NCBI GenBank assembly: GCA_037446635.1
Contig: JBBIIG010000044.1
Location: forward strand, 20,328 to 32,415
DNA from: a bacterium
Lineage (GTDB): Bacteria > Zhuqueibacterota > Zhuqueibacteria > Oceanimicrobiales > Oceanimicrobiaceae
Reading direction: 5' to 3'
DNA: 12,088 nt
Every line of letters starts with the position of its first letter. Position 1 is the stretch's first letter. Made by a program: the position numbers and the translations under genes. Under the pieces are notes generated by a model. It did no database searches, had not been told where the DNA came from, and was given only the letters and a program-made list of their open reading frames with translations. Positions 2,214 through 4,796 of this stretch are shown in pieces.

Positions 2214-2594
2214 TTAGTTCTTCTGCTCCAGCAGCCGGGAAAGCTCTTCGATTTCGGCGGGCGTGAGCGCTTTGCTGCGCGCAAACAGCGACACCACCGA
2301 GCCGTAGTCCATTTCCAAAACGCGGTCGGCAAAATTCCGCACCAGCTGCGCCAATCCCATGGGACGGGTGATCAAAGGTTGATACAAAAATACGCCGTGA
2401 AAATTCTCCTTTGCTAATAAACCCTTCACAACCATGCGATCGAGAATGGTTTTGGTGGTGGAATAAGCCCAGTTGTAAAGCAGATTCAGCTCATCATGAA
2501 CCTCACGCCCGCTCATGCGCCCGCCCTTCCACAAAATTTTCATGATGTCCAATTCGGTTTTCGACAATTCCGGTAAGTTTTTGCTCGCCTTCAT
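2214..2594 (-). CDS. BlaI/MecI/CopY family transcriptional repressor (126 aa)
   Basis: LSKTELDIMKILW, WAYSTTKTILDRMVVKG and C-terminal LTPAEIEELSRLL match the BlaI winged-helix family. Co-oriented directly upstream of the M56 gene. Confidence 0.93.
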   Translation of the reverse strand: MKASKNLPELSKTELDIMKILWKGGRMSGREVHDELNLLYNWAYSTTKTILDRMVVKGLLAKENFHGVFLYQPLITRPMGLAQLVRNFADRVLEMDYGSVVSLFARSKALTPAEIEELSRLLEQKN

Positions 2595-2650
2595 TTGAAA
2601 TCTTGGAATTTTAAAAAGATTGGAAAATTTGGATGCCGTAGTTACGCTGC

Positions 2651-2660
2651 TACAGTTGTA
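2651..2660. promoter_or_regulatory. BlaI/MecI/CopY-type operator TACA-GT-TGTA
   Basis: Exact match to the TACA-N2-TGTA palindrome bound by this family, 56 bp upstream of the blaI-like start codon. Confidence 0.75.
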
Positions 2661-2695
2661 AAAGTTTCCTGATTTTTCGGCGCCTAAAATTTCTC

Positions 2696-2724
2696 TTGCA
2701 TCCGGAACCGAAAAAAGTTATTAT
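2696..2724 (+). promoter_or_regulatory. sigma70-type promoter of ssrA
   Basis: TTGCAT (2696-2701), 17-bp spacer, TATTAT (2719-2724), ending 27 bp upstream of the mature tmRNA 5' end. Confidence 0.7.
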
Positions 2725-2751
2725 TAGTTGTATTTTATGGTCTTTCAAAAT

Positions 2752-3108
2752 GGGGACGACTTGGCTTCGACGGGGGTCGAGGAGCTAAGAATGGCATGCC
2801 GAGGTGGTTCAGGGCCTCGTTAATCAACTGGACGCTAAATTTAAACGCAGACAACTATGCGTATGCTGTTGCTGCCTAATTAACGGCAGCAACCGCTCGC
2901 TCAAATCGCGCCACACGGTTTGAACTGAGCGTCGAAATTGTGGCTATATCATCCATCCTGCTTGAGGGTGGGTGATGAATCTCTTCAAGCTGGCCGGCGC
3001 GGGTTTTGTTGGCTGAACCTGCGGCGGCGAGACTCAATCAACCAACTAAGCATGTAGAAGTTCTTAGAGTCTGGCCTTCGGACGTGGGTTCGATTCCCAC
3101 CGTCTCCA
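2752..3108 (+). ncRNA. ssrA: tmRNA (transfer-messenger RNA); tag peptide (A)ADNYAYAVAA* at 2847-2879
   Basis: 5' GGGGACG pairs with 3' CGTCTCC and includes the G3.U alanine identity pair. 5' GGCTTCGAC motif. T-arm GTGGG-TTCGATT-CCCAC. Resume codon GCA after TTAAAC; the tag ends in AA-stop. Length about 357 nt. The discriminator A3108 is followed by CTA, so CCA is not encoded. Confidence 0.97.
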
Positions 3109-3706
3109 CTAACCTTCCTTTGGGTTGCATAATAATGACGACCAAAGAACTTGAAAAAAACATCCAGGAAGTCTGGAAAATGTTTAGAGAAAATGAGCGG
3201 CGGATAGCTGAGAACTCGAAGGCTGTTGCCGCGCTGACCAGCAAATGGGGCCGCTTTGTGGAAGGTTTGTTGATTCCAGCAGTAGAGCGGCTTTTTGAGG
3301 AGCGCGGCATCGCAGTGGACAAAATATCCCCGCGCGTCAAAGCCCGTAAAAACGGCCGCACCATGGAAATCGACATTCTGGCCATCAACGAGGAATATGT
3401 CGTGCTCATTGAAGCGAAAAGCACTCTGTCTGTGGAAGATATCAATGAACACCTGCAAAACCTGGCCGAATTTAAGTTCTTTTATCCGGAATATGCCGAC
3501 CGCAAGGTTATTGGCGCCGTGGCCGGAATCGTCGTCGATGAAGGCGCAGTCCGCTATGCTTATCAAGCCGGTCTGTTTGTCATTGGCCAGAGCGGAGACA
3601 CCGTGAAAATTTTGAATGACAAAAAATTCGTACCGAAGACCTGGTAAACTATTACAATTTTCACAACAGCAACTGGACGTGGGTTCGATTCCCACCGTCT
3701 CCACTA
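3080..3706. mobile_element. Minimal genomic islet at the ssrA 3' end, bounded by 32-bp direct repeats (attL/attR-like: 3080-3111 and 3675-3706); no integrase
   Basis: GGACGTGGGTTCGATTCCCACCGTCTCCACTA occurs twice, identically, 595 bp apart, enclosing one gene. Confidence 0.75.
3135..3647 (+). CDS. PD-(D/E)XK nuclease-fold protein, DUF3782-like (170 aa)
   Basis: The true start is probably ATG 3135, because the longer track ORF overlaps tmRNA. Short N-terminal coiled coil, [15 protein letters not shown]...LIEAKSTL (D...ExK motif), [16 protein letters not shown]-terminal F.PK.W. Confidence 0.8.
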
Positions 3707-3777
3707 CTTTCCGTTGTTCAAAAATTCTTCTCCGTGGCTGCTCCTCAATAGTTCTCATTCCACTTACGGAGGTCGTT

Positions 3778-4359
3778 ATGGCTGCCAAAAAAATCTTGAT
3801 GATCGTGGGTGACTTTGTGGAAGACTACGAAGTCATGGTTCCGTTTCAAGCGCTGCAGATGGTTGGGCACACAGTGCACGCGGTGTGCAGCGGCAAAAAA
3901 GCGGGCGACAAAGTCCGCACGGCGGTGCACGACTTCGAGGGCGATCAGACCTACAGCGAGAAACCGGGGCACAACTTCACCCTTAATGCCACCTTCAGCG
4001 AAGTGAAACCGGAGAACTACGATGCGCTGGTCATCCCCGGCGGCAGAGCGCCTGAGTACATTCGACTCAACCAGGACGTGCTGAAAGTCGTGCAGCATTT
4101 TTTCAAATCCAACAAACCGGTTGCTGCAATTTGCCACGCGGCCCAGGTGCTGGCCGCAGCGGGCGTTCTCGAAGGAAGAAGCTGCTCCTCTTATCCGGCC
4201 GTAGGACCGGAAGTCAATCGTGCCGGCGGCAAGTACATGGATATCCCCGTGGACAAAGCCCACGTCGATGGAAATCTGGTAACCGCGCCAGCCTGGCCGG
4301 CCCACCCGGATTGGCTGGCGAAGTTCCTGAAAGTGTTGGGCACGGAAATCCGGCTATGA
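3778..4359 (+). CDS. DJ-1/PfpI family protein (193 aa)
   Basis: RBS GGAGG at 3768-3772 before ATG 3778. Motifs [22 protein letters not shown], nucleophile elbow [23 protein letters not shown]. Confidence 0.93.
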
Positions 4360-4368
4360 CATAAATAC

Positions 4369-4436
4369 TGGGGGTATTGGAGTCGTGGAACACTGGTGGA
4401 GAGCATTCCATTGCTCCAAAACTCCATTAATCTACA
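4369..4436. repeat. Degenerate inverted repeat built from TGGAGnnn octamers
   Basis: Left arm TGGAGTCG-TGGAACAC-TGG; right arm CCA-TTGCTCCA-AAACTCCA (reverse complement TGGAGTTT-TGGAGCAA-TGG). Intergenic. Confidence 0.5.
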
Positions 4437-4472
4437 CTACACTGCACGTAGAAAACATGGAGGACACGATCG

Positions 4473-4796
4473 ATGGCTTACACCTTTAAAGAACTCAAAG
4501 CAAAGACCGCGGCCGAACTCAAAGAAATTGCTAAAGGCATCGAGCACGAGGCAGTAAAAGGTTATACCCAAATGCACAAAGACAAGTTGGTGCAAGCCAT
4601 CTGCACCGCGCTGGGAATTGACGTCCACGAACATCACGAGGTCAAAGGAGTTGATAAATCCACCATCAAAACAAAAATCAGAGCTTTAAAGAAAGAACGG
4701 GATCAGGCCATAGAAGCTCACAACCGCCAACAGCTCAAGGCCATTCGCCGCCAGCTCAAAAACCTGAAAAAACGACTGCAAAAGGCAACGGTCTAA
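4473..4796 (+). CDS. Small basic protein with a Rho N-terminal-like (helix-extension-helix) domain and a C-terminal coiled coil (107 aa)
   Basis: RBS GGAGG upstream. ELKAKTAAELKEIAK...GYTQMHKDKLVQAI resembles the Rho_N pattern. The C-terminus is helical and rich in Lys/Arg. Confidence 0.7.
   Translation: MAYTFKELKAKTAAELKEIAKGIEHEAVKGYTQMHKDKLVQAICTALGIDVHEHHEVKGVDKSTIKTKIRALKKERDQAIEAHNRQQLKAIRRQLKNLKKRLQKATV

Follow-up and report, generated by a model that had tools for sequence, protein, structure and literature searches.

The window analysed here, the whole stretch of 12,088 nucleotides, carries the tmRNA gene ssrA, recognized by Rfam with 208.6 bits and by ARAGORN with the tag peptide ADNYAYAVAA. 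The tmRNA terminates in CTA, not CCA, and its last 32 nt are present in two identical copies at an offset of 595 nt, the repeat starting 4 nt before the T stem (Table 1). Between the copies lie 23 nt, a 513-nt open reading frame encoding a 170-aa protein, and 27 nt, with no integrase. The initial annotation had described this perfect duplication around a single intact gene, and the coordinates, the tmRNA model, and the reading frame all confirm it. The 32-mer occurs exactly twice in the genome (4.64 Mb, 97% complete), which answers the call for a search for further copies; three further matches at up to seven mismatches all overlap tRNA genes. The downstream copy is able to form the same 7-bp stem with the 5′ end of the tmRNA.

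Table 1. Features of the ssrA locus, with positions counted in the window
Feature	Positions	Strand	Basis
ssrA (tmRNA), the insertion target, with a CTA end and no terminator after it	2752..3111	+	Rfam, ARAGORN, terminator scan
Repeat copy 1, within the working tmRNA: T arm, 3′ acceptor strand, and CTA	3080..3111	+	sequence identity
Leader, 23 nt, without a Shine-Dalgarno motif and ~290 nt shorter than that of the L151 unit	3112..3134	+	
Gene, probably cargo, for the 170-aa protein with a coiled coil and predicted PD-(D/E)XK nuclease fold; E43, D80, and E93-x-K95 intact	3135..3647	+	
Spacer, 27 nt, homologous to the spacer after the L151 orthologue and 32 nt shorter	3648..3674	+	
Repeat copy 2: tmRNA 3′ end after displacement, with the native DNA continuing beyond it	3675..3706	+	
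pfpI/DJ-1 gene, downstream neighbour of the empty site, outside the cassette	3778..4359	+	

Simple consensus scans of the plus strand found no sigma-70-like site within 2500-4500, the ssrA promoter included, and no terminator from ssrA to pfpI. The leader of the nuclease gene has no GGAGG or other Shine-Dalgarno motif, and the pfpI leader has GGAGG. The earlier remark that the insert lacks an obvious promoter, ribosome-binding site, and terminator is borne out by these scans. Composition (GC3 0.58 compared to 0.66 ± 0.06) is weak evidence of foreign origin. The nuclease is probably no more than cargo. At its left end the window opens with two 94-nt direct repeats, 111 nt apart, that have palindromic REP-like arms (1-205).

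Pfam returned only weak matches for the 170-aa protein, to DUF3782, NERD, and Hjc, with the DUF3782 match below the curated cut-off (E 5e-4, 20.5 versus 24.4 bits). Of 43 aligned homologues, 31 matched DUF3782, 17 NERD, and 11 Hjc at E≤0.01. DUF3782 is described, in the available part of the source, as the coiled-coil stalk of a prokaryotic PD-(D/E)XK endonuclease family (PMC4786415). An AlphaFold2 model (pLDDT 89.8) predicts a long N-terminal helix and an alpha/beta core, with no separate specificity, sensor, or DNA-binding domain. The top structural match of this model is NucS 2vld (VIA Z 11.1, rmsd 2.9 over 106 residues), and its other best matches are the PD-(D/E)XK nucleases Can2, AF1548, and Card1. 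E43, D80, and K95 are invariant among the 43 sequences, and E93 is found in at least 90% of them. By its predicted fold and its E/D...D...(D/E)xK motif the protein belongs to the PD-(D/E)XK superfamily, and the initial designation as a DUF3782-like PD-(D/E)XK nuclease stands for the fold, as modelled, while its DUF3782 part comes down to a match below the cut-off. The N-terminal coiled coil and restriction-endonuclease fold are common to the protein and to DUF3782-stalk endonucleases, NucS/EndoMS, AF1548, and the Can2/Card1 domains. The predicted fold is that of a restriction endonuclease, but the protein matches no restriction-modification (R-M) family and no methylase accompanies it. Searched by sequence against solved structures, the protein showed nothing beyond weak coiled-coil resemblance to haemagglutinin stalks (best E 0.003), which we dismissed as compositional.

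The family is patchy, being found in 25 of 167 genomes of the phylum and in 1 of 20 other genomes of the same taxonomic family; records with the titles Calditrichaceae, Moduliflexus, Desulfobacterales, Bacteroidales, and Methanosarcinales also include homologues. Strains and homologues differ in the N-terminal coiled coil by 7-residue units (window 3135-3200), and several genomes have near-identical tandem pairs or arrays of homologues (L152, L042, L056). Among 81 homologue loci taken with 1-kb flanks, 15 are bracketed by repeats of some kind. We examined eight of the bracketed loci and found two clear units at host gene ends, one on a metagenome contig described below (L151) and one in which the homologue sits between ~120-nt copies of the 5′ end of a P-type ATPase gene (L095). 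At a third (L065) a promoter region is duplicated, and the remaining loci consist of tandem paralogues, simple repeats, or toxin-antitoxin clusters. The 98-bp repeat at L152 was rejected as a host-gene-end unit, since there the nuclease gene has itself been duplicated in tandem. The proposed search for homologues within duplicated tRNA or tmRNA ends gave one case among the eight loci examined, the L151 array; most of the 81 loci are unbracketed. The genome of the window itself has two nuclease paralogues flanking a UPF0150/hicA-like pair (C42, L031:4992-6520), the second of them decayed and lying between copies of the hicA-like 3′ end.

The L151 contig carries the closest homologue found, 75% identical, in a stack of three cassettes behind a tmRNA gene. 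The order there is the tmRNA gene, DUF4160 and DUF2442 genes, a tail, a broken small reading frame with the nuclease gene, a tail, a gene for a 688-aa propeller protein, and a tail. The tails measure ~52, ~52, and ~106 nt in that order, one of them altered by an insertion and substitutions. The array yielded no integrase-like sequence, and the gene that follows it is not pfpI. Because the spacers after the stop codons align, the nuclease units of the window and of L151 are orthologous. The L151 unit has a leader ~290 nt longer and 32 more nt before its tail; as the window unit lacks both, it was probably cut down from a ~950-bp unit, itself without an integrase. The tight packing of the window unit had been held to argue against decay of something larger, and on this point the longer orthologue does not agree.

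The two nuclease alleles differ with dS 0.88, dN 0.088, and dN/dS 0.10; the catalytic residues are intact and, by these ratios, the gene is evidently under purifying selection. Despite this divergence, the 32-nt core of the tail equals the resident tmRNA end in both genomes. For a neutral scar of dS 0.88 to stay 32/32 the probability would be ~1e-6, assuming drift at the synonymous rate. Since a perfect core is this improbable under neutral drift, the tail appears to be either refreshed by recombination or constrained.

Four runs (X1 to X4) were compared as contigs, and the tables for X1 and X2 are nearly identical and constitute one data set. An empty site, with ssrA followed directly by pfpI, had been suggested as a check and was found: a 151-nt X1/X2 contig with a depth of 2.8 joins position 3079 to 3675, skipping exactly 595 nt. 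The contig matches 2991-3079 without substitutions, and its short side comprises 61 letters, of which 32 are the repeat and fit both sides. This bridging contig, and not the low or zero cover of the gene, is the X1/X2 evidence that we used. Because the neighbouring X1/X2 pieces are 97-99% alike to the window, a near-identical strain carries the exact empty site, on the thin support of that one contig. The filled allele is present in X3, in which a 7,841-nt contig spans 2213-4372 in one piece at ~92% identity (166 other letters and 32 gaps) and the gene has a 21-nt in-frame insertion in the coiled coil (at 3182). X4 has one piece across the right junction (3597-3715). Since relatives at a greater distance carry the filled allele, the empty one may have arisen by a precise deletion and need not be the ancestral state. 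The initial view of a discrete, integrase-free cassette of 595 bp is supported by the precise empty allele and by the orthologue in a cassette array behind ssrA elsewhere. No circle-type go-back joint was present among the joints listed for the four runs, which are joints of contigs and do not imply the absence of circles. Between pfpI and a gene for a basic 107-aa protein with a weak Rho_N domain (window 4473-4796), itself located ahead of an egtD-like gene, X3 and X4 have 77 different letters instead of 61 (window 4372-4434).

A duplicated tmRNA end was found at none of 29 relatives' loci, each with 80-1,502 nt of downstream DNA, and a pattern search of 167 genomes gave a close ssrA-end duplicate only in the genome of the window among the matches listed. 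Second matches in G062 proved to be contig overlaps, and those in G036 and G060 are tRNA-Lys genes. Across the family ssrA is located near egtD at a variable interval, ~240 nt in G008 and 2.8 kb in G009; the G009 interval (L229:1452-3629) contains a GMC oxidoreductase gene and a twin-arginine-like partner, without a repeat. The region is absent from the assembly of the same-genus genome G001 (74% complete), which is uninformative.

The same build is found at protein genes. From a local direct-repeat scan of the genome we hand-picked 14 duplications in which a protein gene has its 3′ end copied. The 12 host genes are hemB, mdh, a CCG/Fe-S oxidoreductase gene, uvrA, an LptD-domain gene, a 3-hydroxyacyl-CoA dehydrogenase gene, a pyridine-nucleotide disulfide reductase gene (two stacked units), an MrfA-type helicase gene (two), a TaqI_C-domain gene, a Glu/Leu dehydrogenase gene (gdh), a nucleoside phosphorylase gene (pnp), and a hicA-like gene. 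The uvrA and hicA hosts were named by eye and the others by Pfam. The 14 repeats measure 50-241 nt, and all end between -11 and +18 nt from the stop codon. The cargo between the copies is mostly toxin-antitoxin (ParE, BrnT, PemK, TumE, DUF433/DUF5615, DUF2442, DUF2283, and partners), the rest being two poorly classified reading frames, palindromic repeats only (uvrA), and the decayed nuclease paralogue (hicA). In this genome, then, ssrA is not special as a target. Similar units duplicate the 5′ regions of an M20 peptidase gene, a PPDK-domain gene, and a glycosyltransferase gene, the last with a DUF433 pair and a type II R-M pair as cargo. The type II R-M pair is located on contig C5, between 70-73-nt repeats. 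An automatic 5′-end assignment at L350 was dropped as a probable spurious reading frame.

Eleven of 63 filtered unique local repeats (10 hosts) end ≤20 nt from a stop codon, compared to 3.7 ± 1.8 at random, with 0 of 500 random placements reaching 11, although the gene calls behind this enrichment are crude. Repeats that cover the stop codon are not enriched (13 of 63, compared to 12.4 ± 3.0 at random). In 12 alignments, 87 of the 129 differences between copies fall at codon position 3, and the affected codons are 71 synonymous and 45 non-synonymous. This excess has p 2e-7 against 45% and remains when the largest unit is left out (60 of 93, p 1e-4); the expectation of 33-45%, for in-place duplication plus neutral decay of the fragment, is our own estimate. 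The codon pattern suggests that the two copies are working alleles from different lineages.

Elsewhere in the class, duplications of gene 3′ ends enclose 4 of 22 BrnT loci and 2 of 20 DUF433 loci (six genomes), and 6 and 9 loci, respectively, are bracketed by some repeat; the totals of 22 and 20 exclude loci of the window's own genome and loci without full flanks (7 BrnT and 9 DUF433). The ends of mdh and gdh are duplicated in 0 of 9 and 0 of 14 usable relatives and that of hemB apparently in 1 of 19 (54 nt), so that these genes are not fixed hot spots. A second hemB match in G011 is a contig overlap.

Furuta, Abe, and Kobayashi (2010) described R-M genes, a lone mcrA included, inserted with long variable target duplications that often span start or stop codons, mostly in competent species and without mobility genes; in the accessible part of that report the mechanism is left untested, cutting of DNA by the cargo is proposed to be involved, and tRNA-type repeats with an integrase are assigned to site-specific recombination (PMC2853133). 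Except for R-M identity, the ssrA unit has the structure defined there: a direct repeat of >30 bp unique in the genome (32 bp in two copies, and ~52 nt in the orthologous unit), a single-copy empty allele in a relative (the thinly supported 151-nt contig of depth 2.8), and an insert of <20 kb without mobility genes. The likeness extends to the R-M pair that occupies such a unit in the same genome. Unlike the cases in the part of Furuta's account available to us, the cargo here is mostly toxin-antitoxin pairs plus an orphan PD-(D/E)XK gene, a tmRNA gene is among the targets, units stack in arrays, more than a dozen are present in one genome, and the copies differ as orthologous alleles do. The H47 island of Escherichia coli, as given in the accessible text, is excised between short direct repeats without a recombinase (PMC5426353); it and the "unconventional circularizable structures" resemble the ssrA unit in being recombinase-free and located between direct repeats, and the ssrA unit may likewise be precisely deletable by host functions, although it is a single gene. 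A literature search found no paper on toxin-antitoxin cassettes in gene-end duplications, with subscription journals mostly outside its coverage.

On balance we lean towards reading the 595-bp unit as a recombinase-free cassette that enters and leaves by host homology-driven recombination, that is, by "insertion with long target duplication." Nobusato 2000 is said to be a further reference on this mode of insertion. We infer the following molecular steps. Foreign DNA carrying the end of a gene X plus cargo would pair with the resident X, and the far end of the incoming DNA would be rejoined inside X, 30-240 nt before its end, which would complete X and displace the old X end downstream. Once flanked in this way, the unit could be portable as a circle or as a linear tail-cargo-tail molecule, needing homology to the conserved end of X only, whatever the DNA downstream. 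Repeated events would stack units, and recombination between repeats would remove a unit cleanly. As homology would cease where conservation does, right ends would fall at the stop codon and left ends would vary. Uptake would probably occur by natural competence, and the nuclease gene would probably be transcribed by read-through from ssrA.

Several observations count against homology-driven insertion. Thirty-two bp is a short homology for RecA, and ssrA duplication is rare, as the surveys of relatives indicate. The empty allele is one short contig of low depth and may be a deletion; repeats that cover a stop codon are no more frequent than at random, the 12 hosts were chosen by hand, and the gene calls are crude. 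The ComEC and DprA frames are open in this genome, but these genes are common in bacteria and were found in 10-11 of 14 control genomes. Integrase-bearing phages also create replacement gene ends with silent changes, as at icd/icdC. The repeat begins where a T-loop tyrosine-integrase att site would be expected to begin. The 54-nt tRNA-Lys duplication of another genome (G134) starts near the anticodon, which is also an integrase-type position. T-stem sites are among the common integration sites listed by Islander in the accessible portion of its description (PMC4383910).

An unlikely alternative is that the ssrA unit is a cis-/trans-mobilisable element whose repeats are true attL and attR sites, moved by the integrase of a passing phage or island, with the protein-gene units a separate phenomenon. 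The repeat covers the T arm, a classic site in the available Islander text (PMC4383910), the excision of the unit would be precise, and on a viral contig (L259) an integrase lies beside a tmRNA gene with the same 27-mer. McMurdie et al. (2011), in the part available, report 15 Dehalococcoides ssrA islands without an integration module, all with uniform 20-bp repeats (PMC3146451). The tails considered here vary, however (32, ~52, and ~106 nt), the 23 + 27 nt inside the repeats leave little room for arm sites, and the identical build at 12 unrelated protein genes would go unexplained. The recommended search of the genome for a tyrosine integrase gave three PF00589 matches, namely, XerD, a XerC-like gene, and an integron integrase; no island-type integrase and no resolvase-family gene were found in the genome, and the ~1.5-kb flanks of relatives' tmRNA loci yielded no integrase-like sequence. 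A cognate integrase, as would be looked for with a cis-mobilisable element (CIME), was found neither in the genome nor near those loci, in assemblies that are fragmented. The claim that the repeat is specifically a tyrosine-integrase att site is not upheld, given the ~52-nt orthologous tail, the ~106-nt sibling tail, and the protein-gene units.

Both tDNA islands and the Dehalococcoides ssrA islands share with the window a restored tmRNA and a displaced 3′ fragment, tandem stacking at ssrA, and integrase-less members, so far as the available sources describe them; the unit differs in its 595-bp size, the absence of an integrase inside, its variable tail lengths, and the occurrence of the same build at protein genes. 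By the terms of Islander, the window has a tDNA with a displaced 3′ fragment in the same orientation but no integrase in an island of 2-200 kb, and the program, in the part of its description available, rejects candidates of <2 kb or without an integrase (PMC4383910). Integron cassettes offer another comparison, with one promoterless gene per unit, arrays, and toxin-antitoxin cargo, and the genome does have an integron integrase. The boundaries of the ssrA unit are instead duplicated host gene ends. Cores of attC have the form RYYYAAC...GTTRRRY, and a simple pattern search of both strands found no attC-like motif pair in window 3060-3790 or in L151 230-1960, so the suggested resemblance to an integron cassette does not hold at the unit ends. 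The integron integrase gene (C9, L247:1786-2805) is on a different contig from the ssrA unit and close to the end of that contig, and the sequence examined around it shows no cassette array.

It is improbable that each unit is what decay has left of a larger island with an integrase, pared down to its addictive genes. Trimming is visible between L151 and the window, and toxin-antitoxin genes resist deletion under a stabilisation model outlined in the accessible part of its source (PMC2654758). No integrase relic was found in any unit, though, and the targets are arbitrary housekeeping genes, while by BLAST none of the genome's 43 tRNAs, the customary targets of integrases, is followed by a 3′ fragment; an old neutral scar would also be hard to square with the perfect core of the tail. 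Extra fragments of tRNA-Pro (the 5′ 56 nt, 169 nt upstream), tRNA-Ser, and tRNA-Gly are present in the genome, at C6 (L248:773-1020), C94:34-371, C90:12462-12497, and C70:819-853.

Still less probable is that the PD-(D/E)XK protein acts as a homing-like nuclease, cutting the empty site and being copied in with a long duplication, along the lines of Kobayashi's break-repair idea. Its intact catalytic residues and apparent purifying selection, the patchiness of the family, the L095 homologue, the decayed paralogue at the hicA-like gene, and the lone mcrA with its long target duplication in the available text of Furuta (PMC2853133) would all fit such a role. Most homologues, however, are unbracketed, with tandem paralogues and simple repeats prevailing among the eight bracketed loci examined; the target is still present in two intact copies in the filled allele; and the predicted model has no separate specificity domain. 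Most sibling units encode no predicted DNase but carry RNase- or gyrase-type toxins, a propeller protein, or repeats, which, with only 15 of 81 loci bracketed, speaks against the initial proposal of spread by the unit's own nuclease.

We regard as very improbable that the second copy acts as a signal at the RNA level and is kept by selection, with its T-arm hairpin or an alternative acceptor strand serving to process or stabilise the mRNA of the nuclease, and with mostly vertical inheritance of the unit; the perfect core, the pairing with the tmRNA 5′ end, and the lack of a terminator after ssrA are compatible with it, but a near-identical strain does without the unit, one L151 tail has an insertion and substitutions, and the protein-gene units are not addressed. 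An assembly artefact at the 32-bp repeat, a length near common k-mer sizes, has a negligible chance, since misassembly is excluded by the independent X3 contig that spans both copies and the X4 piece across the right junction, and L151 has the same gene between tails.

As a single islet the ssrA unit is modest, and the value of the observation lies in the genome- and class-wide pattern and in the allele-like divergence of the copies. The pattern bears on how toxin-antitoxin modules and orphan nucleases reach chromosomes in the absence of a mobile element, and more than 12 units in one genome, with allele-like copies and with filled and empty ssrA alleles, make an old mode of insertion testable. 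If uptake is homology driven, donor lineages should be traceable and the event should be reproducible in a competent strain. More tentatively, and with less than even confidence, we propose that in this class small genes for toxin-antitoxin pairs and nucleases move as cassettes without a recombinase, the "attachment site" being the captured end of any conserved gene. Such cassettes would be portable irrespective of downstream synteny, would stack into integron-like arrays with no need of integron machinery, and would incidentally exchange the ends of host genes among lineages. Orphan toxin-antitoxin modules would thereby have a general way of entering chromosomes. Units that are <2 kb or lack an integrase are discarded by island finders such as Islander, so these cassettes would be systematically missed, and not every duplicated tRNA or tmRNA end should be taken for an integrase attachment site.

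Related arrangements were seen in other sequences. The tRNA-Lys 3′ duplication of G134 (C56, L309; 402-455 and 3494-3547) brackets a 3.1-kb unit with one gene for a 695-aa protein, the start of which resembles the propeller cargo of L151, and with no integrase-like match. The same assembly has two different tmRNA genes (L301, L306), possibly through contamination or a phage copy. On a viral contig (L263; 3995-4027 and 4732-4764), the end of a phage-borne tmRNA gene recurs 737 nt further downstream, and one of two small genes that resemble each other lies between the copies.
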